Source: a virus. From it: a stretch of 64,000 nucleotides of DNA. Under the pieces are notes generated by a model, which saw only the letters and a list, made by a program, of their open reading frames with translations, made no database searches and was not told the origin of the DNA. This document shows positions 20,130-60,628 of the stretch, one piece after another. The stretch spans positions 83,530 to 147,529 of IMG/VR virus record IMGVR_UViG_3300036832_001373; one strand, 5' to 3'. Numbering within the stretch: position 1 is the stretch's first letter; each line of letters opens with the position of its first letter. Made by a program: the position numbers and the translations under genes.

Positions 20130-20950
20130 TTATTAGTCTCCAAAGGAACTTGCTCCTCTGTTGCTATAGCATTAGTATTCTCATCAGTTAACACGTAAAC
20201 ATTATTATCCTTTATCGGAGTATTGCTATCAATTATTATACCTACAATCTTGTAAGTTGGAGGACAAACTGGGGACCTATAGTTAAGATCGATATGGTCT
20301 ATGCGCTTAACAGGTTCAGACTCTCCTAGAATACATCTACATTCAAAAGGCACCATTATTGAGAGAAGAGACCCTCTACCTTTCAGTCTATCTGGTAGAC
20401 TTGGAATTTTATCGTATCTTGGATTACCTATCTCAATCCTATAAGGAGATTGGGTATGAAGAATTTGAGAGTCATAGTGATATAAAGTGGACTTTTCCCT
20501 GATACCTTTACGGTACAGTCCATCGAACAACATTTCCGTATATTCAACTTTAAAATCATATACTCTAAGAACATACAAAAGGATAGCTGGAACTACAGTC
20601 ATTTGCCATTTAGATTGAACTGGCTCTCTTATATTGTTTGGATGAGTTGATAAAGCTGGATCCCAAGGACGAAGAGCGTGATCATATGTACGTTCTACTA
20701 CTTCAGTAGTACTTCTGGAGAAGTAGGCAAATGGTAGGGTAATATTTCCAATATTCTCAGGATGTCTTAGTTGATAAAGATACGAGGCATAGTCCAAATC
20801 GTCTCTAGGAGAATAAATTACTTGACTAGGATCAATCCATATAAAAGGAGAAATATAATTTAATAAGTCGTACATACGATATTCTAGTTCACGATTTATC
20901 TCACTCAGAGTGCTTAAAGCATTATCTCCAGAACAGGGATCGTTTGTCAT
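20126..20950 (-). CDS. Putative tail terminator / sheath stabiliser (gp15-like)
   Basis: Size, ITLPFAYFSR motif and position between neck and sheath genes; weak call. Confidence 0.4.
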   Translation of the reverse strand: MTNDPCSGDNALSTLSEINRELEYRMYDLLNYISPFIWIDPSQVIYSPRDDLDYASYLYQLRHPENIGNITLPFAYFSRSTTEVVERTYDHALRPWDPALSTHPNNIREPVQSKWQMTVVPAILLYVLRVYDFKVEYTEMLFDGLYRKGIREKSTLYHYDSQILHTQSPYRIEIGNPRYDKIPSLPDRLKGRGSLLSIMVPFECRCILGESEPVKRIDHIDLNYRSPVCPPTYKIVGIIIDSNTPIKDNNVYVLTDENTNAIATEEQVPLETNK

Positions 20951-21288
20951 TCTTGATTCGTATAGTCTCTACTAAATGTGCCTTTAAAGCGTCTACCAGA
21001 CAGATCATGTTTGTCTTTATTTCCGTACTTATCGTCATCATCCATAGAACCATCTCCGATACCAGTATCAGAAACGCCTCCAGCAGAGGAAGTAGCGTCT
21101 CCTACCCCTTGAGTTCCAGGTATTTTTGTAGGAGTACCAACAACAGTACTACGTTGAATAAAATCCTGTCCTTTATTGAAACTACCAGTTCTACTATTAT
21201 CAGATTTAAAATTTAAAGTTGGAATTTTAGGATCAGCACTACCGATCCTAGCATCAACTAGAGCTCTGATTTTATCTATAGTACTCAT
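20947..21288 (-). CDS. Hypothetical protein with leader MSTIDKIRALVDAR
   Basis: Operonic overlap; leader similar to that of ORF 57798. Confidence 0.6.
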   Translation of the reverse strand: MSTIDKIRALVDARIGSADPKIPTLNFKSDNSRTGSFNKGQDFIQRSTVVGTPTKIPGTQGVGDATSSAGGVSDTGIGDGSMDDDDKYGNKDKHDLSGRRFKGTFSRDYTNQE

Positions 21289-21299
21289 GAGACATTTCC

Positions 21300-21992
21300 T
21301 TAGGCTGGAAAAGGATGATTAAATCCGAAAGCACCTACTTGTGGTCTAAATGATAGCAACCATGCAATCTGATGCCTATTAGTGTTACTATTAACGGTAT
21401 TATAAGTTATGGAACTCCCATCAGAAATCAAATGACCTCCAGATAAGCCACAATATCCTCCAGCAACTATGACTCCAGTAAAAGGAGGAATTAGCGTACT
21501 AGGAGTTGTAGTAACAACATCTCCAGTTCCTCTTGGATCTACAGCACAAAATCCTACTACAAGATCTCCTTTAGCAGGAGTGCCAGTTACTGAAACATTG
21601 TTAGTTGCACTAACTGGACCAGAAATCAAATTAGTTGGATCAGAAGATGTCTTAATTCCTGTAGCATAGAATGCACTAACTGCTGTCCCTCTTCCAGAGC
21701 TACCTTTTGTATAAATTATAGTATCTCCTGCAACTAATGGATTAGAGTTCCATGCAATATAGACTGCTGCCCAACCATAAGTATTATTGTTATTATTAGC
21801 TGCGCTAACTTTCTTAAGAAAAGAATTAGCTGATTTAGAGTCAGCTACACTTCCTGAAGCTGTAGTGCTATCTTCATTAACTCCTATACATATAAAACTT
21901 CCACTTGGAACTCCTCCTGTAGGTACAGTCACGCTAGTAGTAGCACCACTAACACTATTGCCAGTTCCTATATCAACAACCGTTATAGTCAT
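21300..21992 (-). CDS. Beta-rich virion structural protein
   Basis: G/S/T/V-rich; overlaps the stop of the upstream fibre gene. Confidence 0.55.
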   Translation of the reverse strand: MTITVVDIGTGNSVSGATTSVTVPTGGVPSGSFICIGVNEDSTTASGSVADSKSANSFLKKVSAANNNNNTYGWAAVYIAWNSNPLVAGDTIIYTKGSSGRGTAVSAFYATGIKTSSDPTNLISGPVSATNNVSVTGTPAKGDLVVGFCAVDPRGTGDVVTTTPSTLIPPFTGVIVAGGYCGLSGGHLISDGSSITYNTVNSNTNRHQIAWLLSFRPQVGAFGFNHPFPA

Positions 21993-23991: not shown

Positions 23992-24060
23992 AGTCGTTGT
24001 ACTCCTACGTAAAGCAGAGTGGAGAATTGCCTGCTCTGCTATAGAGAGGTGGTATATAAT

Positions 24061-26222: not shown

Positions 26223-26597
26223 TTATATTAGTGCTCCTTCGTGTCCTCGTATTGAGATTATATCAGCTACATCCTTGAACTTCCTATCCGTTACCTCTGG
26301 GATGTACGGACTAGGAGCATTATCTAGGATAGAAGCTTTAAGCGATATCTCTCCATCTTCTTCTGCTACAAGTGAGAAAGATGCTGGCTTTATCACCTTG
26401 GATAGATCCTGGAGAGCAGTTTTATGTCTAACACGAAGTACTGTTCCACTACTGCCTATATACAAATCGCCATTCTGGTCTTGGATATAGGAGATTGACT
26501 CGCCTTCACCTATAGTTACCAATCCTTTGTTAGTTAAAATTTCTATTTGTATAATCGATATACAATTAGGATCGTAGTTATCAGTAATTAACATCAC
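26223..26597 (-). CDS. Hypothetical protein
   Basis: Operonic ORF with RBS GGTGA. Confidence 0.55.
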   Translation of the reverse strand: MMLITDNYDPNCISIIQIEILTNKGLVTIGEGESISYIQDQNGDLYIGSSGTVLRVRHKTALQDLSKVIKPASFSLVAEEDGEISLKASILDNAPSPYIPEVTDRKFKDVADIISIRGHEGALI

Positions 26598-27081
26598 CGC
26601 CTATCTTCTTATAGAAGTTTGTATGTTGAAGAGTACTAGCTAGCAAGAGAAGATGTTTGCACATACCAGGAATCATATTAGGGTTCCTTAGTGGATAACG
26701 AGGATCCCAGACAGGGGTTTTTCTAACATATGGTTTAAATCTTGTTCCAAACGAACAACCTCTGACTTGGTTAGCGAATGAAAAGTTAAAGTAGTATGCC
26801 TTGCAACTACATCTTACTCCAACGTTATTATTAGGAGAAGGAGCTTCTTTAGTAACATCAACTCCGTAAAAAGCAATCTGAGAAATATAAGCTCCCATAG
26901 ATAATTCGTCTGGATTACCTATTCCTGAAGCCCTAACTGTAGCTGTCGCTACTCTAATTTTAGTACCAATGTAAGAATTAAATCTCATAGACTCGACGAC
27001 GTTTCTGCCGTCCATATAACGTATCATACCAATAGGTAGGACAGCTTCGGTTCCATTAACTAGTTGAAGAAGAGTTATCAT
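26581..27081 (-). CDS. SWIM zinc-finger protein
   Basis: CSC...CKH SWIM signature. Confidence 0.7.
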   Translation of the reverse strand: MITLLQLVNGTEAVLPIGMIRYMDGRNVVESMRFNSYIGTKIRVATATVRASGIGNPDELSMGAYISQIAFYGVDVTKEAPSPNNNVGVRCSCKAYYFNFSFANQVRGCSFGTRFKPYVRKTPVWDPRYPLRNPNMIPGMCKHLLLLASTLQHTNFYKKIGGDVNY

Positions 27082-27716
27082 TAAACATGATCTTCAATAG
27101 CTATATTGGTGGCAGCAAAGATACCTAATATTGGACAATTTAAACCAGAAACATGACGCTTCCACATAGCTCCAAAGCCAGACTTTCCACAATAAGGACA
27201 ACTAAAAAATTGTTTTGATATATGGTTAGGACCAGCAGCTGATAATCTACCTGCTACTCCAGTAGAAACCATATTTATATCAGGTCTCTTACTTATATGG
27301 TTAGGTCCTTTAGCTGATGCTCTTTGAGCTACTCCAGTCTGGAACCCAGAAGTCCCAAGTTTAGCTGCTCCACCTTTACTACCTCCAATCTTACCAGCCA
27401 TTGATTGATGTTCAGATGTAAAATATAGCTCAGCTGTACGTTTTCCTGCGTGTTCTCTCATTTCCTGAGTAATACTTCTACTATTCCAATTCTCGGAGTA
27501 ATGAGGACCTCTTTCATATCCAAATGCATCACACCATTCCCACTCCCTGTTACCAACAAAATTATCTCCAACAGACATTGGCCAAGTATCTAATATTTCA
27601 AACTCCCCATCTTTGAATCCTTGTCTATAGCAACGTCTAGGATAATCGTCAGTACAACCTACCTTGACACCAATTATGTGATATACTACATAGCACATTA
27701 TACCATCGATTAGCAT
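27081..27716 (-). CDS. Putative homing endonuclease, family member 2
   Basis: Close paralog of ORF 25575 (ILDTWP, REWEW, HISxRPDINM, FAAxNxAIEDH). Confidence 0.6.
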   Translation of the reverse strand: MLIDGIMCYVVYHIIGVKVGCTDDYPRRCYRQGFKDGEFEILDTWPMSVGDNFVGNREWEWCDAFGYERGPHYSENWNSRSITQEMREHAGKRTAELYFTSEHQSMAGKIGGSKGGAAKLGTSGFQTGVAQRASAKGPNHISKRPDINMVSTGVAGRLSAAGPNHISKQFFSCPYCGKSGFGAMWKRHVSGLNCPILGIFAATNIAIEDHV

Positions 27717-27718: not shown

Positions 27719-28219
27719 TTAACTCCCATAGTCTACACCAATTATTAGTGACGCGCTGGCGGCAGGGTTGGCGACATCTTGTTCTCGTGGACGAGAACGA
27801 GGGTCGGGGTAGTATTTCTTTTTCTTTGGAAATTTGTCATCTTGATTGTTTGGATTAGTAGGTTGAGTTACAGGAACTGTAGACAAAGAGTTAGGACCAG
27901 ACGAGGCAGACCAGAAGCCAGGATGGTATCCGTAAAGTGCACTTGAGGTAACTTGAGAAGTATCTTCGTTCATATCATCTCTAAAATGTTTATACAAACT
28001 TTTAACAACAAGTCCAAGAGTTGGATTTACAGCTCCGGCTATTAAGCCTAAAGTATGACCAGTAATATCTTTATTCTTTTTACTAGAGATAGCTTTCTTT
28101 CCCATATTTCTAGCAGTTCTAGCTAACTGCTGTTTATAGGTACCATACGGCTTAGTTGGAGGCCACTGTCTTTTCGCTTCGTCGTAAACGTCTTCTAGAA
28201 CTTCTAGAACGTAAGACAT
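27719..28219 (-). CDS. Putative head internal protein (leader MSYVLEVLE)
   Basis: Leader nearly identical to that of ORF 39755; basic body. Confidence 0.55.
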   Translation of the reverse strand: MSYVLEVLEDVYDEAKRQWPPTKPYGTYKQQLARTARNMGKKAISSKKNKDITGHTLGLIAGAVNPTLGLVVKSLYKHFRDDMNEDTSQVTSSALYGYHPGFWSASSGPNSLSTVPVTQPTNPNNQDDKFPKKKKYYPDPRSRPREQDVANPAASASLIIGVDYGS

Positions 28220-28227: not shown

Positions 28228-29286
28228 CTATTGATTCTGACCACTCTTAACCCAGGCACTTCTATTTCTTGACCAGTGCATCTCATGACCTTCATGGTCG
28301 TACATATGACCTATAAAGCCAGCTGGAGCACCGTTATCTTCATATCCGACAGTATGTCCAGGACCAAGATCTCTAACTTGGTCAATTGCATCTTTCTTGT
28401 CATAATGTTTTCCAACAACATTTTGAGACGGATCAAAAACATGATATGTTCCAGCTTCTTTTAGTCCAAGCTTTTTAGCAACCATTTCTCTAACTTTTTC
28501 CCTGATAACATTGTTTGGTTCAATTTGACTGGCAAGATGCGGTGCTCCTTCAGGTGAAGCTGAAGACTTAGTAACAGTCACACCACCTACCAAGATGTTA
28601 TTCATCCTACCAGGATCTAAAAATTGATTTTCAGACTCAGAGCCCACGTCGAAATACCAATTTCCAGGTGCTCCTAGGATCCGACCTACACGAATTTTTG
28701 CAAGACCAGATCTCATTCGACGGTGGATGTCCCAGTAGACTGCTTGCTTAGCAATCTGAGTTCGACTCGGAGAAGAGAATCTCAGAGTTACAGCTTCCTG
28801 AATTGTATCCATGGTATCTTCATTCTCCTCATGAGCTGGAATTCCTTGAGCCCTTCTAGCTACTTCGTCTCCATCAAAATGAACATCTACCCTATGACCA
28901 GAAGGATGTTTAAAACTTCTTTGGAATAAATCTCCAGAGGATGGTCCGTAGCTAGTAGCATGGTAGTTTCTATTGAACAGAGTCTTATGAACTTTATTTC
29001 GTCCAAGTCCTTTTAATTTTGCAACTTCTGGATCCGATAGGGGAGAATCGGGGTTCACTCCTCCAGACTCTTTAACTCCACTTCCTGAAGTTATCTCTCC
29101 AGCCATGGAGGTATCACAAACCATTTTATCTCCAACTCTTTTCAGAACTCCAGACTTACCTCCTATAGTACAAGCTCTACCCTCTTGAGTAAACCATTGA
29201 AGAGGTTGTTTTGGATCTGTCGTAGTCCAAGTTTGAGGTTGGATATCAAAATTAGCTGAAGTTGTTGACTCTCGAAGAAGAGACAT
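28228..29286 (-). CDS. Putative multi-domain head internal protein
   Basis: Leader MSLLRE; one Cys-bracketed repeat as in ORF 24061; segments separated by VKE/IQE/IRE/LKE sites. Confidence 0.55.
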   Translation of the reverse strand: MSLLRESTTSANFDIQPQTWTTTDPKQPLQWFTQEGRACTIGGKSGVLKRVGDKMVCDTSMAGEITSGSGVKESGGVNPDSPLSDPEVAKLKGLGRNKVHKTLFNRNYHATSYGPSSGDLFQRSFKHPSGHRVDVHFDGDEVARRAQGIPAHEENEDTMDTIQEAVTLRFSSPSRTQIAKQAVYWDIHRRMRSGLAKIRVGRILGAPGNWYFDVGSESENQFLDPGRMNNILVGGVTVTKSSASPEGAPHLASQIEPNNVIREKVREMVAKKLGLKEAGTYHVFDPSQNVVGKHYDKKDAIDQVRDLGPGHTVGYEDNGAPAGFIGHMYDHEGHEMHWSRNRSAWVKSGQNQ

Positions 29287-36309: not shown

Positions 36310-36320
36310 CGTGACTGCGA

Positions 36321-38147
36321 TTACGCAGAGTAGTTAGAAACTGTGCCCTTCACAAAATATCCTGGGTTGTTGACGAACATATCGTACCAGCTTTGTTATC
36401 GCTAAGGTTCTTTATCCCTAGCTTCTTACGCTTTCACGTAAGCTCAGACTATATCATCATCCAAGACTAAAAACTTGGAGTCCGGCGCTCGTGGAGGAAT
36501 TATCGCCTACGGTCAGAGACCGCTTACGGCTCACCTCTAGTCGTTGCTCCTTCAAGGGACTTTCATCCCAAGCTTGGATCAGGATTGCCCTCGTCTTCAC
36601 GTTAGGGTGTTCCCTGAGTTCACCGGATTTAGTGTCCACCTTCAATGATATGTAATGGACATCAAACCTTGCTGGTTTTGTAACGTCGGGGCTTGGAACA
36701 CAGGTGTGAAGTAAATTGGTATCCATTCGGCCAAAATTATGGACGAATCACCTGCCATGTATCCCTTGTACCCGCAGATAAAGTCGTTCGTGTTCAGGAC
36801 TTTGAGGGTCTTGATCACAGGAAGAGTACCATCCCTCAAATGGCCAAGAACGTGAGCACCAATCGGAGCAGTGATCGGTGCACGAACGAAGCCCTTGGTA
36901 GCAGCCAGAAGGTTACAGGCATTGGCTCCAGCTAGGACCCAAGAGAGACCACCACGACCCATCGTGCCTTGAATCAATGCTTCAGCTTCGTTGATCTTCA
37001 GCTCGATATCCGCATACTTCGATTGACGATCGAAGTACTGAGGAGACTGAGTCGCGTCGAAGTTCAAGGTAGCCTGAGGTGCAGCAGCTTGGTTGATCAG
37101 ATACATGAGCGCATTGTCTCGCTCATTCTTTAGGAACTGACCAGCGAGCTCAGCCAAAGTGTCTTGCACATCGATGGCTAGATGCGCCGACGCAGCAAGA
37201 CCAGCTGCCACCGAGTAGGTGAACTTCAGAGGATGGATCTTAGCTTTGACAGGGACGGTGATCAAGTCGAACTCGATCTCGTTGATGCCAGCAGTATTAG
37301 ATTCAGAGCTCCAGGCGTACTGAGCGTAGATAGCAGAGCCAGTGGTCGGAGCCGTCAGGAATTTGATGGCAGTAGCGCCAGCAGTACCACCAGTGTAGGT
37401 GATAGTATTCGGACCAGCAGGATCTAAGACACCAGCAGGACCAATTAGACCACCAGAACCGTTGTCAGTAACAACTACTGTATTACCACCAACCACTGCT
37501 ACGATTGAGACAGTGCTAGGCTGGATCGGGGTACGACCTAAGGTCCAGGTGTAGGTGACAGTAGCAGCCGGAACGCTAGCGACAACCTTCTCGTTCACCA
37601 CTTCCGAAGCGTAGTCGTAGGTGGCAGTCTTGAAGATTTCTTGACCAGCTACGACAGGACCGACATCTGTCGCAGGCAGAGAGTTGGAGAAGATTGGCTT
37701 CATCACGAAGATTTCACCAACCTGACCATCGATTGGTTGGATGTCAACTAGTTCTGGAGCCACCATATTAGGATAGAAGATACGGACGACGTCCAGAACT
37801 CGAGGGTTCAACGCACCGAGGTTGGTTTGAACGGTAGTTTCACCGTAGAGATTCTTGGCTTGCTCAAGGAATGCTCGGGTTTTTTCGACGGCGAGCATTG
37901 TGAGAGCAGCTTTCCATTGGTCCTTGGGGTTGTTGGACTCAAAGAGGGCACCGATACCGGTCCACTCACTGTACTTACGGTTACGTTTGTTCTGGATATC
38001 ATAGAACTCTCCCTCATCAAAGAGTCGAGCTCCGGTCTTGATCTTGTTCTCACGGAACAAGACAGCTGCTGAGTCCTTGTTTTCAGTCATTAGCAAGGAC
38101 GGATTGATCCTTGAGGCCGTCTCGGCCAATTCGTTTAAGAGACCCAT
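36321..38147 (-). CDS. Major capsid protein (T4 gp23-like), spliced: exon1 36655-38147, exon2 36321-36387, 519 aa
   Basis: Motifs ELVDIQPI-x-G-x-VGEIF, V-x-AK...LK..YS, GYKG...D...I..A-x-WIP. Splicing gives the C-terminus GLMSMYDMFVNNPGYFVKGTVSNYSA*, matching the gp23 G-x-x-x-x-Y...NP...YF ending. Confidence 0.9.
36388..36654 (-). mobile_element. Group I self-splicing intron (267 nt, no credible internal ORF) in major capsid gene
   Basis: P1 UGUCCAU/GUGGACA with U.G at the splice site. R element GCAACGACUA and S element GAUAUAGUCU. Terminal G at 36388. Intron 5' UACAUAUC complements exon2 GUAC-GAUAUG (P10). Confidence 0.88.
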
Positions 38148-39754: not shown

Positions 39755-40405
39755 TTAAATTATACTGAGACTCACCCTATTCAAAAGAAGACTGTCACGT
39801 TGTAGCCTTCTAATCTTGTTAACTTTTGATCCCATTAGGTCAGCTGAGTCGAGACCAGAGTCGGCTTTAGAGATAAAAGTCTTAGTTCTACTATGATAAA
39901 ATCCTCTGTCATTGGAATCAAACTTGTCTTTATGTATAGGGTCTATCTCATCAGCGTGCCTATCGATTATATCGTTATGAGTTTCACCTTTACGTCCTAC
40001 ATACATTTTTCCTGTATCAGGATGTCGGAAGGCAGGATACAGAAACCTTAAAGCTTCCCTGCCTTCTGGAGTAGACATATCTAAACGTTCTTCTAGGCTT
40101 TCAGTACCATATTTTCTTAGTCGCTGAGTCCTAGTCATCAGATCAGTAGAGTTAAAGTCTACTTCTGGACCATCGTGGAATGATTTTCTCCGTGAATCAT
40201 AATAACCAGTACGATACTCTGGACTAGCCATGTGGTCATAGTTAGGTATGACTTTTCTAAACACGTCTGCGTGTTCGTCTCCTCTCCTACCTACTGTAAT
40301 TTTACCAGTCACTCTATGCATAATAGCAGGAATTAGTCTAGCTTTCCATTGTTTAGTACCTACATCATCATAACTATCTTCTAAAATATCTAATACGTAG
40401 CTCAT
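39755..40405 (-). CDS. Putative head internal protein with two PAxxHxxTGK domains
   Basis: Leader MSYVLDILE; tandem ~85-aa repeat separated by GTESLEE. Confidence 0.6.
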   Translation of the reverse strand: MSYVLDILEDSYDDVGTKQWKARLIPAIMHRVTGKITVGRRGDEHADVFRKVIPNYDHMASPEYRTGYYDSRRKSFHDGPEVDFNSTDLMTRTQRLRKYGTESLEERLDMSTPEGREALRFLYPAFRHPDTGKMYVGRKGETHNDIIDRHADEIDPIHKDKFDSNDRGFYHSRTKTFISKADSGLDSADLMGSKVNKIRRLQRDSLLLNRVSLSII

Positions 40406-40842
40406 GCTGGAACCCGTCGTCTTTCTCTTCTACGAGCTTCAACGAACTCTTCAAGTTCCTCAGGCTGAACTCCGAAGCAGGCTACAATATGAGATTTAAG
40501 ATCGTGAGGTGAAGAATCAAAAACTATTGAGACATCTATTAGAGAACGGGCTAGAGACGGGTTGTACTGAACAAGGAAAGAGTGTATATCAATAAGTTTA
40601 GTTGATATAGGGAGTATCTCACGAATCAGAGGAAGAACCTCACGGATTTCGTCTCTAGATAATTTAGTTGCCATTATTGGAGTTATAAATCTGGACCAGC
40701 GGGATGGACGTCCATCTCGAGTTACACACATATAGTGTGAATAATAGTGAGCTTTATTCCTGATATAGTAAGGGCAGTCAATTATAAATCTCCACTGTGA
40801 TCTATAGTGACGTGCTTTTACTCTTGAGAGATCGAGATCCAT
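40402..40842 (-). CDS. Hypothetical protein
   Basis: Operonic ORF. Confidence 0.55.
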   Translation of the reverse strand: MDLDLSRVKARHYRSQWRFIIDCPYYIRNKAHYYSHYMCVTRDGRPSRWSRFITPIMATKLSRDEIREVLPLIREILPISTKLIDIHSFLVQYNPSLARSLIDVSIVFDSSPHDLKSHIVACFGVQPEELEEFVEARRRERRRVPA

Positions 40843-41313
40843 TTAGTCTCTCGTTTGATTGTAAGTTGCCATAGTGTCTTCAAGCTTAGCGTAGCCCTGC
40901 TCTCTTATAATTCTCTCTAAAGCTTCTTTATCCAACTCTTTGCATTCTTCCAACATAGTCTTATAGAGTTCACCAAGACCAGAGATATATTTATTTATTG
41001 GTATGTAAACTCCTAGGTTAGGATAGGTAGTATAATCAATAACAACAGGTTGACCTAACAGGAATTTATTCCTCAACCTCTCGTATACTAAACGGTCCTT
41101 GATATAATTTTGCCAGAATCTATCTAGATCCCAATAAGATGCTATATATTCTAAATCGTTGCCAATTTCTTTTATCAAAACCCATTCTTTAGGGTAATAC
41201 TCATGTATAAGAACTCCTTCCGGGATGAAGGAAGCTTCCTTAACTCCTTCATTAACTGAAGTAACACCATCTACTCTTTCAGGTAATTCATATTGTGGAG
41301 GTATAATTTTCAT
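40843..41313 (-). CDS. Hypothetical protein
   Basis: Operonic ORF. Confidence 0.55.
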   Translation of the reverse strand: MKIIPPQYELPERVDGVTSVNEGVKEASFIPEGVLIHEYYPKEWVLIKEIGNDLEYIASYWDLDRFWQNYIKDRLVYERLRNKFLLGQPVVIDYTTYPNLGVYIPINKYISGLGELYKTMLEECKELDKEALERIIREQGYAKLEDTMATYNQTRD

Positions 41314-41633
41314 AAGTGTTTCCTATAGTCATAGTTATACTTTCTTATATGTGTAAAAGAAGTGTTTCCTTTCTGATTAGAATCGTACGGTCCAAACTTG
41401 TTTGGTGAAATCCCCAAATGTCTTGCAACCTCATTATGAGTATTGTCATGCGCATGCCATAGATAGTAATCCTTATTCTTGTCGATAATATATCGAACCG
41501 GAGCATCTTGTCCTACTCTAGCCTCCATCCCTTTTAACTCATCCTTTGATGGATTAACTAGGATATGATGTTCATTCCCCATAGTGGAAGGCACTTTCTC
41601 GATTTTCTCTAAAACTTGTAGAAGGATACTCAA
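41310..41633 (-). CDS. Putative head internal protein (leader MSILLQVLE)
   Basis: Leader; His-rich body. Confidence 0.55.
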   Translation of the reverse strand: MSILLQVLEKIEKVPSTMGNEHHILVNPSKDELKGMEARVGQDAPVRYIIDKNKDYYLWHAHDNTHNEVARHLGISPNKFGPYDSNQKGNTSFTHIRKYNYDYRKHL

Positions 41634-43333
41634 GCTACTAGCCTTAATTTAGCTTCGTTCTCTTTCTCAACGAAACGTTCGAACCCACTAGGATGTCGAA
41701 GAGCTTCAGCTAGTCTAGCTAGACCAGGACGTAGATAGTTAAACCTTGGATCTTTAGAAGACGTGAGAGTTATATAATCTGCATCGGCAGCTAGTGGAGA
41801 AGCACCTCCTGCTCCTCCAGACATAAATAACTGCGCTACAGTTTTTGGCATCCCTAAGGTTTGGAGTATATTTGAGTACAAATTTGGAGGAAGTGGAGCC
41901 GGAAGCTCCTGACCTTGAGGAGTGATCTGTGGAGGAAGAGTCTCTTTCAGTCCTTGTATCAACACAGTAGCTGTATCTGCTATAAGCTTATAATTTTCAA
42001 TCATAGTCACAGCAATTTGAGTTGGTCTTTGTAAAGCTACTGTAACCTCAAAGGAGCTTAGATCAGCTTTTGCAACATAGACTGCCACTGTCATGCAGAG
42101 TTTGGTAAGTCCCTCAACAAAGGCATTTTGATAGGTAACGAGTTTTCTGGCGAATTTAATATCTTGCTGCTGTAAGGCGGATCCACGGTCAGTAACTTGA
42201 TCGGCGAGAAAGTAACCCTTGGGTAGTCCAGTAACAGATATGGCTTTGTCTCTAAAGTAGGCGACATCCTCGACACTTGAAAGATCCACAGTGGAGGACA
42301 ACTTATCCGCTTCAAAGCCTTTGTCTGACGGCATGAATAGTATGTCCGTGAGACCCGGAGTTTTTCCATAAGTTTTTGTCCCTAAGGAGGTGTCTTTGAA
42401 TATGATATTCTTAAACTGAGCCTTTAGAGACTGAATCTTCTGAGCAGCCTGGACAGGGTTCGTAGAGCCAGTTGGGATTTTAATCACAAGTCGTTCAACT
42501 CGAGAGGCACGGGAGAGAGCTAGGAGAGCCTCGAGAGTAACGAGATGGTCAAAGTCTATTCTCATGCCTTCAAGAAGAGAACGGCCATAGGGCTTCATAT
42601 CCTGATCGTAAACTGACATTTGTACAAATTCCCAAGGCTGTAGCGCTTTTCTGCGGGCAACTCCAGTCTGAGGAGCTCTAATCCAACGGTTGAATTTTTC
42701 ATCAATTTTATAGCCTATACATATTTTACGTTCTTTAGCTACAATACATTCCCAAAGAAGAGGATCGATATAGTCTAAGCCTATATCTGGAACATCTTTA
42801 TCTACATTAGGAATAATGATCTTAACTCCAAGATCACCATACTTAATTAGATTTCTAACAAACGATCGACTTCGTTTTAAAACGTCATTGGTTTGGAGAA
42901 CTTCCATTACCTGATTTCCAACACCTTTGTCATTGAAAGTAATTTTTATAGGCTCGTCTATAAATCCAACTGCCAAACACTCATCAGAGTATGTATCTAG
43001 GCTGATGCAAGCTTCGGCCATAGCTTCGTCCATGATTTTATATGTCTGGACTCGACGATTCCTTTCATGTTCAGTACGAGTTTTATTAACAGATTCATCT
43101 AGCCAATGATCTATAAATTGGAGCCTTATCTCACTTGTTCCTAAGTCAACATTTGGAGGAAGAGCAACATAGGTTCCATCGTCTGTTTGAGTGACTTGTA
43201 GATTCATCCTTGCTGCAAAATCAGAAATTCGATCTGGAGACAAAGTTACAGTCTCGAAGAGATGTTCGCCAGGTTCACGAGAACTAGGTTGACTATCTCT
43301 GATACTATTATAAATATTATCGTACCAAGGCAT
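41630..43333 (-). CDS. Portal protein (T4 gp20-like)
   Basis: R-x-LIKYGD, PYGRSLLE, R-x-SR-x-ER, D-x-FMP, VEDVAYFRDK...GLPKGYF, QQDIKFAR. Confidence 0.9.
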   Translation of the reverse strand: MPWYDNIYNSIRDSQPSSREPGEHLFETVTLSPDRISDFAARMNLQVTQTDDGTYVALPPNVDLGTSEIRLQFIDHWLDESVNKTRTEHERNRRVQTYKIMDEAMAEACISLDTYSDECLAVGFIDEPIKITFNDKGVGNQVMEVLQTNDVLKRSRSFVRNLIKYGDLGVKIIIPNVDKDVPDIGLDYIDPLLWECIVAKERKICIGYKIDEKFNRWIRAPQTGVARRKALQPWEFVQMSVYDQDMKPYGRSLLEGMRIDFDHLVTLEALLALSRASRVERLVIKIPTGSTNPVQAAQKIQSLKAQFKNIIFKDTSLGTKTYGKTPGLTDILFMPSDKGFEADKLSSTVDLSSVEDVAYFRDKAISVTGLPKGYFLADQVTDRGSALQQQDIKFARKLVTYQNAFVEGLTKLCMTVAVYVAKADLSSFEVTVALQRPTQIAVTMIENYKLIADTATVLIQGLKETLPPQITPQGQELPAPLPPNLYSNILQTLGMPKTVAQLFMSGGAGGASPLAADADYITLTSSKDPRFNYLRPGLARLAEALRHPSGFERFVEKENEAKLRLVA

Positions 43334-46595: not shown

Positions 46596-47269
46596 TAGGT
46601 CCTCGATCTGAATGTTAGATGTGACGAAGCACCATTCAGGATATCCCTGATACTCTTATCAGCAGTTATGATTAGATAATTTCCATCCATATCGTAAACT
46701 TCTATACTGTTATCTCTAACTTGAATTCTACCGTTATTGTACCTATACTGTTCTGATTCAGAAGTTGGAAATATTACACGACCAGGAGGGATATACCAGC
46801 CTAGGTCTGGCCAAGTTGGATCAATCCCAGTAATATACTCTTCTCTCCCTCTCCCTGTATTGAGTATCCATTGAGAGTTCTTAGGGCACTCATCATATGT
46901 ATCATACGAGTTGTGTACAGTGTAAAGTTCGGTATCTGGATTATAGGAAGCAGCGTGCCAAGTTTTTACACCGCTAGCACCCTCAACTGTCAAAACGTGA
47001 CTTTCAGAACCAAGAGCTCTAAATCTCTGAGGTCCAGTCATTAAATCTGTAGAATCCTTGCCTATCTCATCACGAGTGTGAAAATTTCCAGTCTTAGGAT
47101 CGAGAAAGCCTGTATGATTGTAAAGTTTAGCTCTTTCTGGCTGAAGTTCTGGATACTTCTTTAAGATTGCTAAATGATCTTGACCTCTATTGACAGTATA
47201 GATTTTGCCAGTATCAGGATGTCTGATAGCTGGCTTAACTCTATCTGTAACGTCTTGGCTAACTTCCAT
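46595..47269 (-). CDS. Two-domain protein with PAxRHPxTGK domain
   Basis: N-terminal domain aligns with ORFs 39755 and 59993; internal SHVLTVEG resembles the ORF 54628 leader. Confidence 0.6.
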   Translation of the reverse strand: MEVSQDVTDRVKPAIRHPDTGKIYTVNRGQDHLAILKKYPELQPERAKLYNHTGFLDPKTGNFHTRDEIGKDSTDLMTGPQRFRALGSESHVLTVEGASGVKTWHAASYNPDTELYTVHNSYDTYDECPKNSQWILNTGRGREEYITGIDPTWPDLGWYIPPGRVIFPTSESEQYRYNNGRIQVRDNSIEVYDMDGNYLIITADKSIRDILNGASSHLTFRSRT

Positions 47270-47274: not shown

Positions 47275-47637
47275 TTATAGGTTAGGTGGAACCTTGACGT
47301 AGTATTTACAAGTCACCGAATTGTCGGCAGGATCCTCATGATAAGTAAAACTAACTAGCTTATAGTGAGAAGCTGCCAGGTGCATCCTAAGCTCATCCAT
47401 AAAGCGTTTATGGTCCGCTCCGTTCGGACAAAGGGATGCAGACGCTGAGGCTGAGGGTCCACTCACTGTCACTATGTGGCTGTTGGGATCCTGACCATTT
47501 GGTTGACAGGAAATCGATGCCCCTCCTCCAGCTACCGCTCTGAAAATTCCTTCTAGGTCTTCGAACTCCTCTGTGATGGGAACGTTTAGAACTTGTTCCT
47601 TTATTACTCTTTTGGCGGGAGTTGATAGTAGATTCAT
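47275..47637 (-). CDS. Hypothetical protein (leader MNLLSTPAKRVIKE)
   Basis: RBS GGAG; leader similar to that of ORF 48439. Confidence 0.55.
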   Translation of the reverse strand: MNLLSTPAKRVIKEQVLNVPITEEFEDLEGIFRAVAGGGASISCQPNGQDPNSHIVTVSGPSASASASLCPNGADHKRFMDELRMHLAASHYKLVSFTYHEDPADNSVTCKYYVKVPPNL

Positions 47638-48438: not shown

Positions 48439-48660
48439 CTATTGTGCTATTCTGGTTAACTCTTTGACCCGATAACGTCCAGCAGGTCCATTATCTAGAG
48501 CCACTATAACTTCGAAACATCTATCTGGAGGAACGTCTGTGACGGTCCCAGCTAGTTCAGTTCCCTGAACTTTAACTCTATCTCCACGTTTTAGTGGATG
48601 TGGAAGAAACATCCATTTAGTCTCCAACAATCTCTCAGCTGGGGTAATCAAAGAGTTCAC
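48439..48660 (-). CDS. Small SH3/KOW-like protein (leader MNSLITPAERLLE)
   Basis: KRGDRVKV...GTV...V-x-LD pattern. Confidence 0.5.
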   Translation of the reverse strand: MNSLITPAERLLETKWMFLPHPLKRGDRVKVQGTELAGTVTDVPPDRCFEVIVALDNGPAGRYRVKELTRIAQ

Positions 48661-51764: not shown

Positions 51765-51769
51765 TAGAA

Positions 51770-52132
51770 TTATTCCTTCTTGACGCAAGCTTCATCCTTT
51801 GGATATCGACCACAGAATGAAGCAGCTTGATCTTTGATCCACTCGCGCGCATCATCTTGATTCATACTACGCCAGGTGGCAGCCGGATGAGTAGTAGTAG
51901 TTGGACGAGTTACAGTAACTACACGGACACGAGGAACTGGCTTAGGGTCAGAATGATGAACTACAGGTTTTTCAGTATGTCGTTTTTCAGTATGTCTAGA
52001 ACGATGACGTGGCTCTGGAGTTGGTCGCTGTTGTTGTTGACAAGACCAGTCAAAGCACCAAGATTGGTACTGAGGGTAGTACTGAGCTTGAGCAGGAGTA
52101 GTTAGAAGAGCTAGGAGTAGAAAGTTTTTCAT
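51770..52132 (-). CDS. Exported protein with signal peptide
   Basis: MKNFLLLALLTTPAQA-Q; located in the lysis cluster. Confidence 0.55.
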   Translation of the reverse strand: MKNFLLLALLTTPAQAQYYPQYQSWCFDWSCQQQQRPTPEPRHRSRHTEKRHTEKPVVHHSDPKPVPRVRVVTVTRPTTTTHPAATWRSMNQDDAREWIKDQAASFCGRYPKDEACVKKE

Positions 52133-52404
52133 TTATCTACTACATCTATGTTGAAGAGTTTTGAGAGGTCTTCACCTGGAGGTAGGTATTTGCTATACGG
52201 ATCTTTGGTTTTTCCTTTGAGATCCACCTTCTGGAGAGCGTATCCTCTTTTACCTTTAACCATCATATGAGGTTCACCATTAATCACAGTTACTTTGTAG
52301 CCTGGATCTTCTTCTTTAGGCTTGGCAATTTTAGACGTAGGAGGAGTCGTCTTTTCAGCCTTTTCTACAAGTTCTCGAATAATAGAAAGAATTCTACTTT
52401 GCAT
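52129..52404 (-). CDS. Putative head internal protein (leader ...ILSIIRELVE)
   Basis: Leader; Lys-rich body. Confidence 0.5.
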   Translation of the reverse strand: MQSRILSIIRELVEKAEKTTPPTSKIAKPKEEDPGYKVTVINGEPHMMVKGKRGYALQKVDLKGKTKDPYSKYLPPGEDLSKLFNIDVVDK

Positions 52405-55085: not shown

Positions 55086-55089
55086 AATT

Positions 55090-56094: not shown

Positions 56095-56112
56095 TGGAGA
56101 ACTCCTAGCGTG

Positions 56113-56310
56113 TTAGGGGTTGTCGTTTTTAGTGAACGGCTGGATTCCCGGTGAGCCAGTTTGACGTTTTTTAAGACGACGCCTGAAACGTTGATTATAA
56201 ACTTTAGTAGGATCTAGAGGGTCTCGACCGTAGTTATCACGACCTCCGTAGGCTAGAATTTCTTGAACTTTTAGTTCAACAAGTTGACGAACTATTTGTT
56301 TAGCAGACAT
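56113..56310 (-). CDS. Putative head internal protein (leader MSAKQIVRQLVE)
   Basis: Leader shared with ORF 58709; Arg/Lys-rich body. Confidence 0.55.
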   Translation of the reverse strand: MSAKQIVRQLVELKVQEILAYGGRDNYGRDPLDPTKVYNQRFRRRLKKRQTGSPGIQPFTKNDNP

Positions 56311-56314
56311 AGTG

Positions 56315-56878
56315 CTAACGTCCTAGGTTTGTCAGATGGTCGTGTAGATCTTTGACGGTATTTCCGAACTTTTTGTTGGGACCATCTTCGTGTCTCCATG
56401 TAAATATAAACTTTTCAGGAGGAGTCTGTGCCATCTTGCCTCCGTAACTAACTACCCTTGATCGTGTCTTTGAATGGTTTAGCGTTACTGAGTCGCCTTC
56501 TTTATGACGAAAAATAGAAAAGTCTCCAGTGGAGTGATATGTAGGAATATAGCCCTTAGAGGTGAGTAGATCTTTGTATAATCCTAAGCTACCTTTACCT
56601 GGAGCGGAGGCTTCAGGACCTGTCGTGAAGCTAGCTGAAGGAGGTCTTGGAGGAGGTCCTTTTGCAGGTTCCGGAGCTCCTTTTGGTGGTGCTTTTGGAG
56701 GAGATTCTGGATCATAGCCCATACGTCTTAGAGCATGGGCCGCAGCTTGTTTTTCACCAGGAGTACCTGCACGTTGGTATAGGTCAAAAAGTTTTTCGTG
56801 TGTTTTTCTGGTATCAATTTCAGTTAAAAGGAGAGCTTCCACTAGAGAACGAACCGCCTGTAAGGCTGCAGTGGGCAT
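56315..56878 (-). CDS. Putative head internal protein: DUF2786-like module plus YxxLLTxxGY domain
   Basis: Leader ...AVRSLVE; LYQRAGTPGEKQAA shared with ORF 56883. Confidence 0.55.
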   Translation of the reverse strand: MPTAALQAVRSLVEALLLTEIDTRKTHEKLFDLYQRAGTPGEKQAAAHALRRMGYDPESPPKAPPKGAPEPAKGPPPRPPSASFTTGPEASAPGKGSLGLYKDLLTSKGYIPTYHSTGDFSIFRHKEGDSVTLNHSKTRSRVVSYGGKMAQTPPEKFIFTWRHEDGPNKKFGNTVKDLHDHLTNLGR

Positions 56879-56882
56879 TTTA

Positions 56883-57230: not shown

Positions 57231-57237
57231 AGGATTT

Positions 57238-57393: not shown

Positions 57394-57401
57394 TGGAGTT
57401 A

Positions 57402-57767
57402 CTAGTCCTTATGTATTTTTGATAGATAACTGTGGAAGTAGGAGGCTGATCTACCTACGTTTCCACCTCCTGTAGAAGCAGTGTGTTCCCAGCTACCCAC
57501 TAGTTTAGAATTATTTGGATGCTGCAGGACAACTACATGGAATTCCTCGCTACCAGCTTTTCTGGGATGAACATTAGTTCTAAAAAAGACAGAGTGATCA
57601 GGATCGCCACGATCTTTTTCGTAACCGTGAGATGTGAGGATCTGATGGTACACTCCTCTATGGGATGGACCTTTATCTGGATCGTAAGGTTCTGGAGGAT
57701 CCCGACTTAACGCAAACTCAACTAGTTCACTGACTATCTTTCTAGTTCTCGGATTAACTGAGTTCAT
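57402..57767 (-). CDS. Putative head internal protein with YxxLLTxxGY domain
   Basis: Leader ...RKIVSELVE; YHQILTSHGY. Confidence 0.55.
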   Translation of the reverse strand: MNSVNPRTRKIVSELVEFALSRDPPEPYDPDKGPSHRGVYHQILTSHGYEKDRGDPDHSVFFRTNVHPRKAGSEEFHVVVLQHPNNSKLVGSWEHTASTGGGNVGRSASYFHSYLSKIHKD

Positions 57768-57768
57768 C

Positions 57769-57789
57769 AGATTGAATCCTTCACAAAGT
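57769..57789 (+). repeat. 21-bp direct repeat, copy 1 (AGATTGAATCCTTCACAAAGT)
   Basis: Exact match to 58264-58284. Confidence 0.85.
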
Positions 57790-57797
57790 TTGGTATT

Positions 57798-58262
57798 TTA
57801 CTCATATGAAATCTTCTCACGATTTCTATGATCTTCAACTTCTTGTTTTATATTATCAATTTTCTTAAGGTGATCTCCAGGAGGAATATATTTATTAGCT
57901 AACATGCTACCTCGTACATTCCAAGGAAAATACTTAAACGCATGTCCTTTAGCCATGTTAGGATGATGTAAATCTAACCTATAGACATGACCATAACTCG
58001 CAGCTTCTTGAGGCTCTGAAGTAAACCAACTTCTAGAGTAGTTCAGGCCTACTTCTGGAGCAAAAGGGTGAGTCTCTATTCCTCGTCTATGGAGATCAGG
58101 TGATTTAGAACCGTGATAGAGATAACGAGTAGTCGTATCTTTAGTCTTTATTCTTTTACGATCATTAGCATCCGGTGGATTAATTTTAGGATCGTCTATA
58201 TAATCTGAACTAAAGATCCTTGCATCTACCAGTGATCTTATAATCTGTCTGGCGTGGGACAC
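57798..58262 (-). CDS. ADP-ribosyltransferase-like protein with leader
   Basis: YLYHGS...WFTS...AASYG...VYRL, the H-G-S/T plus aromatic strand pattern of the ART superfamily. Confidence 0.55.
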   Translation of the reverse strand: MSHARQIIRSLVDARIFSSDYIDDPKINPPDANDRKRIKTKDTTTRYLYHGSKSPDLHRRGIETHPFAPEVGLNYSRSWFTSEPQEAASYGHVYRLDLHHPNMAKGHAFKYFPWNVRGSMLANKYIPPGDHLKKIDNIKQEVEDHRNREKISYE

Positions 58263-58519
58263 TAGATTGAATCCTTCACAAAGTGGAAGATTTTATCATC
58301 GAAGTAGAGCGTTCCACCAGAATCTGTGATGTCTGCTCCGTATGTATGTCCGTTTATCAGTTGACGCTGTCCATGGCTATCTGGAAAAAAGAGGAACGGA
58401 TCACATACATGCTCGTTAGTGATATTTCCAATGAATATGAGTGTATGACCATCTGGAGTGTTTGGAGGCTGGAATAGGTAGGCACACATTCCAAATGCTA
58501 TTGTTGTGAATATAGGCAA
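58262..58519 (-). CDS. Hypothetical protein
   Basis: Operonic ORF, RBS GGAGGG. Confidence 0.5.
   Translation of the reverse strand: MPIFTTIAFGMCAYLFQPPNTPDGHTLIFIGNITNEHVCDPFLFFPDSHGQRQLINGHTYGADITDSGGTLYFDDKIFHFVKDSI
58264..58284 (+). repeat. 21-bp direct repeat, copy 2
   Basis: Exact match to 57769-57789; forms the 3' end of ORF 58262-58519. Confidence 0.85.
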
Positions 58520-58523
58520 TTTT

Positions 58524-58709
58524 TTATCCCTCCAAAGATGGAGGTCGGATGCTACGCATCCTCCCTCTCTTTTCTAGGCCTAGTTTAAAGTGGGTTTGAC
58601 GCATTTGTTCACGTGTAGCCTTTGTATGTTTAAATCCATAAAATCCGTTAGTAGTATCTTTAGGTTTTACTACTTTAGTGTGTTTTCTAGGATAAATTCC
58701 CTTTGGCAT
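58524..58709 (-). CDS. Stand-alone NUMOD3-motif protein
   Basis: FYGFKHTKATREQM matches NUMOD3 (G-x-KH-T/S-x-x-T-x-x-KM). Confidence 0.6.
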   Translation of the reverse strand: MPKGIYPRKHTKVVKPKDTTNGFYGFKHTKATREQMRQTHFKLGLEKRGRMRSIRPPSLEG

Positions 58710-59071
58710 TAACTTGTTCCTCCCACTCCCGGTGTATAAAATTTTCCACCTGCCCCTAGAGCTTTATCAATGGCTGATAGCGCTCTGTCTCCATATTTCG
58801 ATATAGGCTCTTCCGTTGTATCGTCTTTTGGTTCTGAACTTTTTATAGTAGATGGTAACATTCCTTTACTAGCTGCAGTTATATGGCTGGTTAGGGAGGT
58901 AGGGCTTAGGTTTCTTAACCCTGTAGTTGCACCTAGTGCTCCTACCATTTGTTTATCTGTAGGAAATGTTTGAATTCTATCGTCTGGATAATTTGTGCCT
59001 GGTATATTTGCCTCCAATATTTTTAGTTCAACTAAAGAGCGTACTATTTGTTTGGACCTAGAGCTACTCAT
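58709..59071 (-). CDS. Putative head internal protein (leader ...KQIVRSLVELKILE)
   Basis: Leader shared with ORF 56113. Confidence 0.55.
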   Translation of the reverse strand: MSSSRSKQIVRSLVELKILEANIPGTNYPDDRIQTFPTDKQMVGALGATTGLRNLSPTSLTSHITAASKGMLPSTIKSSEPKDDTTEEPISKYGDRALSAIDKALGAGGKFYTPGVGGTS

Positions 59072-59271
59072 AGCAAGTTCTCCCATTGTTTAACTAATTC
59101 TTCATAATCATCTGCTACTGCAATTTCTCTCCCTGACTGAGTACGCACTACAGTTTTAGAGTCTGGAGCGTGTCTCACAGGGCTAGTTTCTCTCATCGAC
59201 TCTATAGCCTCTGGATAGATATATTCAGTTCCACCGTTTCCTGGTAGGGTAACCGTTAGTAGTCTGATCAT
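59068..59271 (-). CDS. FlbD/SwrD-like small protein
   Basis: MI-x-L...G...I-x-PEAIE...T-x-V...G....V.....E-x-V pattern. Confidence 0.45.
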   Translation of the reverse strand: MIRLLTVTLPGNGGTEYIYPEAIESMRETSPVRHAPDSKTVVRTQSGREIAVADDYEELVKQWENLL

Positions 59272-60000
59272 CTAAACTTTCTCGTATTCTTCATATTCAT
59301 AGTACCACCTAGAACAGTAAACGACATAAATCATATGTCGTATTTTCCTCGAGTTATTGGATAGCCCTCTATGGAGTACATTTCCATGTAGGATTATAGC
59401 GTCTCCAGCCTTAGCGCCTGAGGTAGTAACAGTTTCTCTACCTTCAGTTTCTCGCTGAGAGCCTATCTTTATCTCTACAGGTCCATTTTCCTTTGTAAGA
59501 TCTACTAAAGGAATGAGAACGGTGATGTAGAATATAGGTAAAGTCCCCTCAAGTTTACTATCATTAAAAAGTGACCATACGTCTCTATGCCAATACCCAT
59601 CTAGAGATCCTGGTTGGGAAGGAACTGATCCTGCATAACTCGTGTAGCCTGTCTTGAATAGCGAGTTCACTATAGTTAAAACTTTTTTATTTTCTAAAAA
59701 TTTTCTTGATTGGAATATTCCATGGTCCAGAGCCAAGTCATACCGTCCACTAGTTAGGAACATGACGGTAGAACCTCGAAACTTAGACCGTCTCCGTATA
59801 CTACCATAGTTTCTCTGGTATAGTTTTGAAGATTTAAACCCCTTCCAATAAGATTCGTTCTTTCTAATTAACTTAGAAAGCAGTTTTCCTGTGAAAACCT
59901 CAGGAAGAACCGTATATCCTTTAGTTTTCAGTTCATAAATAGGATCCACTAGTTTAGGGGAACTACTCGTTGGAACGTTGACTGTGAGAAGTTTAGCCAT
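59272..60000 (-). CDS. 2OG-Fe(II) dioxygenase, phytanoyl-CoA dioxygenase (PhyH) family
   Basis: WHRD (HxD), PLVDLTKENGP, GDAII...LHRGLSN...R. Confidence 0.85.
   Translation of the reverse strand: MAKLLTVNVPTSSSPKLVDPIYELKTKGYTVLPEVFTGKLLSKLIRKNESYWKGFKSSKLYQRNYGSIRRRSKFRGSTVMFLTSGRYDLALDHGIFQSRKFLENKKVLTIVNSLFKTGYTSYAGSVPSQPGSLDGYWHRDVWSLFNDSKLEGTLPIFYITVLIPLVDLTKENGPVEIKIGSQRETEGRETVTTSGAKAGDAIILHGNVLHRGLSNNSRKIRHMIYVVYCSRWYYEYEEYEKV
59955..59982 (+). promoter_or_regulatory. Phage promoter-like motif, copy 5 (orphan, antisense)
   Basis: TAGGGGAACTA-CTCGTTG-GAACGTTGAC; no sizeable plus-strand ORF follows directly. Confidence 0.55.
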
Positions 60001-60628
60001 GAGCCGCTATTGACTCTGTTCCATATTTCCTAAAACGTTGGGCTTTAGTCATGAACGTAGTTGAATCTATACCCGTATCTCCCCTACTGTGAAATTCTTT
60101 TGTTTTTGGATCGTAAAATCCTGAGTGTCTTAAAGGATGGTATTCTCCACGAGACTGAAGTTCGTTAAGTTCTGGTTCTATTTTGTGATAGGCTGCTACT
60201 TCTTCGTGAGTTTGACCTCGTTTTCCTCTATAGATCTGACCTGTGATAGGATGCTTGATAGCAGGTACGACACGATCTTCAACTTCCTTTGGTAATTTCT
60301 TTTGACCGAATGGCTCTTCAGTTGACTTAACGTAGAGATGGTAGTCTAAATCCCCAAAAGTTTTTCCATGATGGACTTCAGGATCTATACTAGAGTGATG
60401 AACCCAGTGATTAACATTTTCCCCATCTGGATGACTTAATTGCATAGTATGAGTTTCTTGGCTATTTCTAATGTGATAGGTACTTGATTTGGCGTCTTTA
60501 TGAGTTCTTCCATAGTCATATAGAGTAAGTAGTTCGTGATAGTTGTCGATATGATTGCTTTCTTCACCCTCGTGACCACTAACTTCTTTCTCTAGAAGTC
60601 GTTTTAGAATTTCCAAAACTACACTCAT
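59993..60628 (-). CDS. Putative head internal protein: YxxLLT domain plus PAxKHPxTG domain
   Basis: Leader MSVVLEILKRLLE; both recurrent domains present. Confidence 0.6.
   Translation of the reverse strand: MSVVLEILKRLLEKEVSGHEGEESNHIDNYHELLTLYDYGRTHKDAKSSTYHIRNSQETHTMQLSHPDGENVNHWVHHSSIDPEVHHGKTFGDLDYHLYVKSTEEPFGQKKLPKEVEDRVVPAIKHPITGQIYRGKRGQTHEEVAAYHKIEPELNELQSRGEYHPLRHSGFYDPKTKEFHSRGDTGIDSTTFMTKAQRFRKYGTESIAAHG

Follow-up and report, generated by a model that had tools for sequence, protein, structure and literature searches.

Two position-specific N-terminal leaders in an uncultured large phage are candidate capsid-targeting propeptides

Why do about 15 small and mostly dissimilar proteins of one phage begin with nearly the same few residues? 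The question is raised by the last 64 kb (the window, meaning the whole stretch analysed here and the frame of our coordinates) of the IMG/VR virus record IMGVR_UViG_3300036832_001373, a 147.5-kb record estimated to be ~70% complete, from an uncultured large phage with a predicted T4-type head. A sequence-only reading of the window had listed about 17 small proteins with unrelated bodies and a common N-terminal leader, and had proposed that the leader sends them into the capsid, in the manner of the capsid targeting sequence (CTS) of phage T4. Here we report two classes of genuine leader, specific in position, conserved throughout the clade and movable between bodies. As to their role, we give slightly better than even chances to their being capsid (prohead-core) targeting propeptides like the T4 CTS.

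Two classes of leader are concentrated at protein N-termini

All 17 peptides on which the proposal was based lie at N-termini. A six-frame search placed 15 of them at the start of minus-strand open reading frames (ORFs), and the remaining two, those of 41310 and 54628, were recovered when TTG starts were permitted. Both TTG codons overlap the upstream stop as TTGA and are followed at once by the leader, which supports them as genuine starts. Each protein is labelled by the low, stop end of its minus-strand ORF, so that its leader lies at the high end (28193-28219 for ORF 27719-28219, for example). The class 1 consensus, M-S-x-V-L-x-V-L-E, was found in seven proteins of the window and in one encoded elsewhere in the genome, and the class 2 consensus, I-V-R-x-L-V-E/D at residues 6-20, in seven proteins. 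The genes concerned, with the weak and rejected candidates, are as follows (matrix scores are explained below).

27719..28219, minus: class 1, 166 residues; leader at 28193-28219; best score (23.4 bits) with the relatives-only matrix
39755..40405, minus: class 1, 216 residues, two copies of domain A; directly upstream of the protease gene; matrix match
41310..41633, minus: class 1, 107 residues, TTG start overlapping the portal stop (TTGA); matrix 14.9 bits
45951..46595, minus: class-1-like, 214 residues; leader one residue longer, ending L-A-E; weak matrix score, 6.6 bits
54628..54891, minus: class 1, 87 residues, TTG start overlapping the upstream stop (TTGA); net charge +11, very basic; matrix 12.3 bits
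56883..57230, minus: class 1, 115 residues; body homologous to class-2 protein 56315; matrix match
59993..60628, minus: class 1, 211 residues, 20 of them His; domain A at the C-terminus; matrix match
Genome 78990-79505, outside the window: additional class-1 gene, in the baseplate region
20947..21288, minus: class 2, 113 residues; leader ends L-V-D; amid tail-fibre genes
52129..52404, minus: class 2, 91 residues; class-2 pattern
56113..56310, minus: class 2, 65 residues; class-2 pattern; part of the 4-clique
56315..56878, minus: class 2, 187 residues; class-2 pattern; body segment in common with 56883
57402..57767, minus: class 2, 121 residues; class-2 pattern
57798..58262, minus: class 2, 154 residues; class-2 pattern; leader ends L-V-D
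58709..59086, minus: class 2, 125 residues; class-2 pattern; the second Met may be the true start
47275..47637, minus: class 3 N-terminus (T-P-A-K-R...K-E), 120 residues; weak candidate
48439..48660, minus: class 3 N-terminus, 73 residues, GTG start; weak candidate
28228..29286, minus: MSLLRE protein, 352 residues; rejected as a leader protein

The original count of 17 was not fully upheld. Class 3 consists of two proteins only, and the MSLLRE protein (28228) was dropped because its orthologues in the relatives L003 and G001 have unrelated N-termini and it gave no matrix match. Orthologues of 27719 in the same two relatives retain the leader; a split of 27719 into two tagged L003 genes was considered and discarded, the similarity being confined to the leaders.

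The enrichment of the leaders at N-termini was borne out by several tests. Among the 46,554 residues encoded genome-wide, the class-1 pattern S.[VIL][LN].[VIL] has 26 matches, nine of them at residue 2-3, while the class-2 pattern [IV][RS].LV[ED] has eight, seven of which fall in the first 25 residues (0.97 expected). Both patterns were picked after the fact, and we therefore built an independent 9-residue matrix from the leaders of relatives only (seven leaders, all from L003, L005 and G001). Run against this genome, it gave 10 matches of at least 10 bits, seven at residue 2-3, where 0.10 were expected. When the leader matrix was scanned over 894 ORFs from 80 related loci, 14 matches were obtained, five at residue 2-3 against 0.15 expected, and all five belong to the closest relatives. 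A graph of N-terminal similarities contained nine triangles and one 4-clique, whereas internal control segments gave no triangle. An all-pairs 8-mer comparison of N-terminal with internal segments showed no overall excess of high-scoring pairs; in pairwise comparison, then, it is only this triangle and clique clustering, not global 8-mer similarity, that sets the leaders apart.

The leaders are also restricted by strand, being carried by 15 of the 109 minus-strand ORFs and by none of the 117 plus-strand ORFs (Fisher p = 1e-5), and all 15 robust leader proteins are encoded within the structural-gene strand block. Their codons vary: Ser is written TCT, AGC or AGT, and Leu, Val and Glu likewise use different codons, so the conservation is at the protein and not the DNA level. 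The ending is [LIV]-x-E in 13 of the 15 leaders, many of which are followed by a second L-x-E site 4-6 residues downstream; two class-2 leaders (20947 and 57798) terminate in L-V-D. The sequence-only reading had described most bodies as rich in His, Lys and Arg, and they are: K+R+H amounts to 0.198 of residues in tagged bodies versus 0.155 (p = 2e-4), His alone to 4.7% versus 2.0%, and net charge is also higher. Pfam and PHROGs returned no family for nearly all of these bodies. Scanning IMG/VR with degenerate DNA for the class-1 leader retrieved one true relative and three chance matches.

The leader is a portable module

The leader is not part of a fold but a module that is attached to different bodies, and the bodies themselves, contrary to what had been supposed, are not all unrelated. 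Domain A is shared by 39755 (two copies), 59993 and the untagged 46595 (ORF 46595-47269), where it stands in a leaderless protein, and one body segment is common to 56315, of class 2, and 56883, of class 1. Homologous bodies can thus bear different leaders. In 57798 the body is preceded by a class-2 leader with a spacer; the homologous body in L005 (11285-11620), with 45% identity, comes directly behind a class-1 leader. Conversely, the class-2 module of ~25 residues that 20947 and 57798 have in common heads a different, 70-residue body in L013 (7300-7512; 76% capsid identity), in a gene that adjoins three class-1 genes. A leader and body resembling those of 57402 were found in L018 at 4419-4763. 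Across the clade the bodies change but the leader is retained, even between phages with capsid identity as low as 56%.

In L003 (74% capsid identity) three consecutive genes carry a class-1 leader, and one of them encodes a complete Acb1, an enzyme directed against the cyclic-oligonucleotide-based antiphage signalling system (CBASS). Positions 1-137 of Pfam PF23474 align to its residues 13-151, and because the full domain begins at residue 13, the first 12 residues are an add-on. The tagged, complete anti-CBASS Acb1 fits the idea that tagged proteins counter host defences. To our knowledge no Acb1 is known to be packaged. The anti-defence genes of relatives lie just downstream of the capsid gene (L002/L005 6585-7836; L003 16716-17174) and comprise a weak match to an Acb2/Tad1 hairpin, a Tad2-like gene and Acb1, the last being the one with the class-1 leader.

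Orthologues of 39755 (P0273-P0275) have a leader and a single domain A, and they keep the gene order, standing after genes for 106, 156 and 146 residues and upstream of the protease. An AlphaFold model of P0275 (mean predicted local distance difference test, pLDDT, 75) has residues 17-110 folded and residues 1-10 unstructured, with pLDDT below 50. Neither among solved folds nor among viral ones did the domain-A model find a match at E <= 0.001. The leader also turns up inside proteins:

46979..47005, minus: internal class-1 leader copy without Met, residues 89-97 of ORF 46595-47269; matrix 7.4 bits

Such internal copies directly follow the conserved G-[ST]-E-S end of domain A (G-S-E in 46595-47269, and alike in the metagenomic homologue P0276), which suggests concatenated leader-body cassettes or cleavable junctions.

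For 57798, a word-based homologue search returned only the protein itself, and its structure model was too poor for use (pLDDT 44). We do not claim an ADP-ribosyltransferase for its Y-L-Y-H-G-S body, the sole lead being a weak one to poly(ADP-ribose) polymerase (PARP; 16% of one cluster).

A T4-type head module surrounds two tagged genes

T4-type head genes are present, including the gp21-like protease that the sequence-only reading had reported:

41630..43333, minus: T4-type portal, without leader; PF07230, phrog_213
40402..41313, minus: two leaderless genes between portal and protease (156 residues, acidic; 146 residues), conserved in L002, L003, G001 and L016
38210..39616, minus: prohead protease, gp21/S77 family, 468 residues; PF03420 (Peptidase_S77), 35.1 bits against a cut-off of 27; phrog_207
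36642..38147, minus: major capsid protein (Gp23 family), predicted first exon; PF07068

Two tagged genes, 41310 and 39755, stand between portal and protease, and 39755, next to the protease, holds the same place in a relative. The 156- and 146-residue proteins, for which Pfam has no family, are possibly parts of the prohead core.

In the protease, the catalytic-type residues H88 and S147 are invariant in 42 homologues. Its N-terminal L-L-I-E, of which L10 and E13 are nearly invariant in the same set, corresponds to the 'LIE-9' of T4 gp21 (PMC9026906). The C-terminal extension (residues ~190-468, ~280 residues) is helical and acidic, and homologous proteases have extensions of up to ~1,400 residues. 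No separate scaffold gene lies between the protease and capsid genes; the C-terminal half of the protease resembles a scaffold and may act as one, and also as the receptor for the leaders. Used as a single query against viral contigs, the protease gave no matches, and neither did the endolysin against metagenome contigs.

The capsid protein itself begins with M-G-L-L-x-E-L-x-E, which is conserved in 18 homologues and resembles the class-1 leader. The same homologues without exception retain E70, within L-[FL]-E-S, and G102-E103, so that E70 and E103 are candidate maturation sites, and when mapped on the solved T4 gp23 the mature T4 N-terminus falls between the two. In the window at 36315-36654 (minus) the capsid gene stops early (...G-L-M-S-I-T-Y-H) relative to 17 homologues. 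The ~22 missing C-terminal residues are encoded ~265 nucleotides downstream in another frame, with the last exon near 36315-36380; this arrangement is consistent with an intron.

Targeting propeptides or something else?

The mechanism that would join these observations runs as follows. The tagged proteins would be made late, and their short amphipathic N-terminal helix would dock them as cargo on the assembling prohead core, probably by binding the C-terminal, scaffold-like half of the protease or else a different protein of the core. Once the shell had closed, the gp21-family S77 protease would cut after the Glu that ends most leaders, often at the second L-x-E nearby, and the basic, His-rich bodies would be retained with the DNA inside the head and pass into the cell on infection. 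Class 1 and class 2 would be interchangeable addresses.

We favour such CTS-like propeptides because a position-specific motif was validated with leaders from other phages, and because the leader is a movable module outside the folds in a phage whose head genes are of T4 type. The endings of 13 of the 15 leaders count in the same direction because S77 proteases cut after Glu, as do the retention of L-[FL]-E-S and G-E in the capsid protein and of L-L-I-E in the protease, the resemblance of the leader pattern to the T4 CTS, the basic bodies (as in T4 internal proteins), and the placement of tagged genes between portal and protease, with all 15 inside the structural strand block. Support is firmer for class 1 than for class 2, and class 3 and MSLLRE are not accepted.

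Several results weigh against this reading. The [LIV]-x-E motif alone is frequent, with 663 sites in the genome and no N-terminal enrichment. In sequence the leader is not homologous to MKTYQEFIAE, the T4 CTS, and the two are alike in pattern only. No gp22-type scaffold gene was identified. The two class-2 leaders that end in Asp count against processing because in the T4 CTS an Asp at position 10 blocks it, though targeting still works (PMC9026906); these two leaders and that of L013 end in Asp or Gln without a nearby L-x-E. Several bodies are paralogous, so duplication accounts for part of the number of tagged genes. The T4 late promoter TATAAATA is not enriched (four found, 4.3 expected), and for the 52-60 kb small-gene block, which lies upstream of the lysis genes and holds nine of the 15 tagged genes, there is no late-promoter evidence, scans for sigma-70 promoters and terminators having stayed at background. 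Finally, packaging, cleavage, injection, binding to the core and a role against host defences are steps that we infer for an uncultured phage. The capsid-targeting proposal as first made is supported in part: the gp21-family protease, the portable leaders of T4-CTS length, their mostly hydrophobic-x-Glu endings, the basic bodies, the portal-protease placement and the tagged Acb1 speak for it, and it was overstated as regards the Asp endings, class 3 and MSLLRE, the unrelatedness of the bodies and the missing late-promoter signal.

Any common partner would explain a portable and conserved module, and the leader could be a shared N-terminal helix for something other than the prohead, such as a membrane, a regulatory factor, a chaperone of phage or host, or a host protease that sets the time of degradation, its Glu ending then being incidental. 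The concentration of tagged genes in the small-gene block, the two Asp endings and the lack of a known packaged Acb1 all sit well with this. It leaves unexplained why the leaders keep to the structural strand block and why tagged genes stand between portal and protease, and it offers no account of the likeness to the capsid N-terminus and to the T4 CTS pattern, of the tandem L-x-E sites or of the basic bodies; we consider it unlikely. Nor do we find it probable, and still less so, that the leaders are simply N-termini that have diverged slowly within one or two families of fast-evolving paralogues, spread by duplication and by recombination at conserved 5' ends and without any address function. 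The body domains common to 39755, 59993 and 46595 and to 56315 and 56883 would be expected from such a history, as would the tandem clustering of tagged genes and an identical stretch of 21 nucleotides upstream of two class-2 starts. A leader fused to a complete and unrelated Acb1 domain would not, and different leader classes on homologous bodies, synonymous codon differences that point to selection at the protein level, and a leader kept while bodies change between phages with only 56% capsid identity argue against it as well. The 21-nucleotide stretch, which includes the ribosome-binding site and precedes the starts at 57767 and 58262 (57768-57790 and 58263-58285, minus), suggests in its own right a cassette duplication or recombination.

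The leader might instead be what a modifying enzyme recognises, as with ribosomally synthesised and post-translationally modified peptides (RiPPs), the candidate enzyme being a PhyH-type Fe/2-oxoglutarate dioxygenase encoded at 59272-60000. Its gene (PF05721, 39.5 bits) does lie inside the tagged block, overlapping the end of 59993-60628, and the bodies are His-rich. But the 147.5 kb contain no radical S-adenosylmethionine (radical-SAM) gene, no PhyH or other enzyme is recorded beside the leader clusters of the incomplete genomes L003, L005, L013 and G001, and the tagged genes are dispersed over 40 kb, so that this explanation seems very improbable. Next to the PhyH gene, the small ORF 59068-59271 (minus) repeats its N-terminal L-L-T-V-x-[VL]-P motif and is perhaps a truncated duplicate of it.

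Beyond the CTS-like reading itself there is a bolder version, which we regard as possible but rather doubtful: the two codes would preload the capsid with a fast-changing set of at least 15 effectors, enzymes such as Acb1 among them, so that counter-defence arrives with the DNA and need not await synthesis in the infected cell, and the internal copies after G-[ST]-E-S would mark polyproteins cut by the head protease.

Other features of the window

Below ~60.6 kb nearly all genes are on the minus strand, in the order small-gene block (52-60 kb), lysis genes, neck and head genes, and then tail fibres and baseplate; replication genes sit in the plus-strand half of the genome.

50022-51788, in the minus-strand block: endolysin, among the lysis genes

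No close DNA relative was found among cultured phages. The nearest are phiXF1 and QdP_Psa3 (38% capsid identity), and the head region of phiXF1 showed no leaders of the class-1 or class-2 kind.

About 11 paralogous small genes, on both strands and dispersed among the structural genes, share the N-terminal motif I-Y-H-x-x-G-x-K-V-G-C-T. Seven are in the window and four elsewhere in the genome:

25575-26207: I-Y-H-x-x-G-x-K-V-G-C-T paralogue
27081-27716: the same family
31895-32392: the same family
34132-34638: the same family
35755-36273: the same family
48732-49244: the same family
60924-61439: the same family

The one member tested had no Pfam match, and the spread of the family is like that of free-standing homing endonucleases. 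The 166-residue gene at 26581-27081 has homologues in L002 (12499-14415) and L003 (17191-18885) that contain an intein, which the gene of this phage does not; the intein of the L002 homologue includes a LAGLIDADG domain. At the end of the record, window 62000-64000 is rich in guanine and cytosine (53% versus ~42%), with ORFs overlapping on both strands, and looks non-coding or foreign relative to the remainder.

Comparison with T4 and other phages

In T4, the first 10 residues of internal protein III (IPIII) suffice for packaging, and within the CTS targeting depends on residues 4 and 7, processing on residues 8 and 10 (PMC9026906). T4 internal proteins are highly basic, and their CTS is the MKTYQEFIAE mentioned above (PMC8442874). 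The internal protein (ip) genes of T-even phages are recognised by the CTS leader, otherwise share nothing, and inhibit GmrSD variants (PMC12373910, PMC3012670); they differ from one T-even phage to another (PMC12373910, PMC3012670, PMC9026906). The phage described here agrees with this picture in having an N-terminal leader of ~10 residues on otherwise non-homologous, basic and non-essential-looking proteins, with the qualification that some bodies share domains. Most of its leaders likewise end hydrophobic-x-Glu, and they are alike in amphipathic pattern, length and position; judged by eye, the pattern they have in common with MKTYQEFIAE is an acidic residue at 6, hydrophobic residues at 7 and 8 and Glu at 9-11. 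A gp21-family S77 protease, a gp20-type portal and a gp23-type capsid protein are encoded as well, the last only remotely related to T4 gp23 (E ~5e-8 to solved gp23 chains). Departures from T4 are the coexistence of two leader classes, the Asp at the end of some leaders, the scatter of tagged genes across 40 kb, in part amid tail genes, and the internal leader copies at domain junctions. There are ~15 tagged genes compared with three ip genes in T4 and 'at least 10' across T-evens (PMC12373910).

The S77 proteases of T4, phiKZ, 201phi2-1 and SPN3US recognise short motifs and cleave them after Glu, and their sites are often redundant (PMC5694885, PMC9026906); in giant phages head and ejection paralogues share conserved N-termini that are thought to act like a CTS (PMC5694885). 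The phage studied here resembles phiKZ, 201phi2-1 and SPN3US in its S77-type protease, an enzyme that in those phages cuts after Glu, and in its multiple, redundant candidate sites (PMC5694885). Their propeptides are mostly at least 100 residues long with the motif A/S/G-x-E, as against 9-17 residues with L, I or V at P3 here. In the distant relatives L092 (4094-9394), L069 (6072-9078) and L060 (5401-6900), whose contigs span 75-263 kb and whose capsid identity is ~32%, a different leader, M-S-K-F-R-N-I-V-E-x-I-L-x-E...L-x-E, is common to three to five genes that lie immediately upstream of the one for the capsid protein. From its sequence it looks like a separate lineage-specific tag; we do not equate it with class 2, as a matrix built from L060, L069 and L092 fails to retrieve class 2 in this genome.

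What is new, compared with these systems, is the lineage-specific pair of tags, the ~15 tagged genes in a single genome, the exchange of tags between homologous bodies, the internal copies and the tagged Acb1 in a relative. The principle of a targeting leader is itself already known, that of the CTS since 1996. If the CTS-like reading is true, the injected cargo of a whole uncultured phage clade can be read from sequence, it is several times larger than the three internal proteins of T4, and it includes at least one known type of anti-defence enzyme (Acb1, in a relative). The ~15 small basic proteins would then be a shortlist of candidate first-minute effectors, the leaders would offer two new short tags to try for loading foreign proteins into capsids, and the CTS principle would extend far beyond the T-even phages, with tag sequences particular to each lineage.

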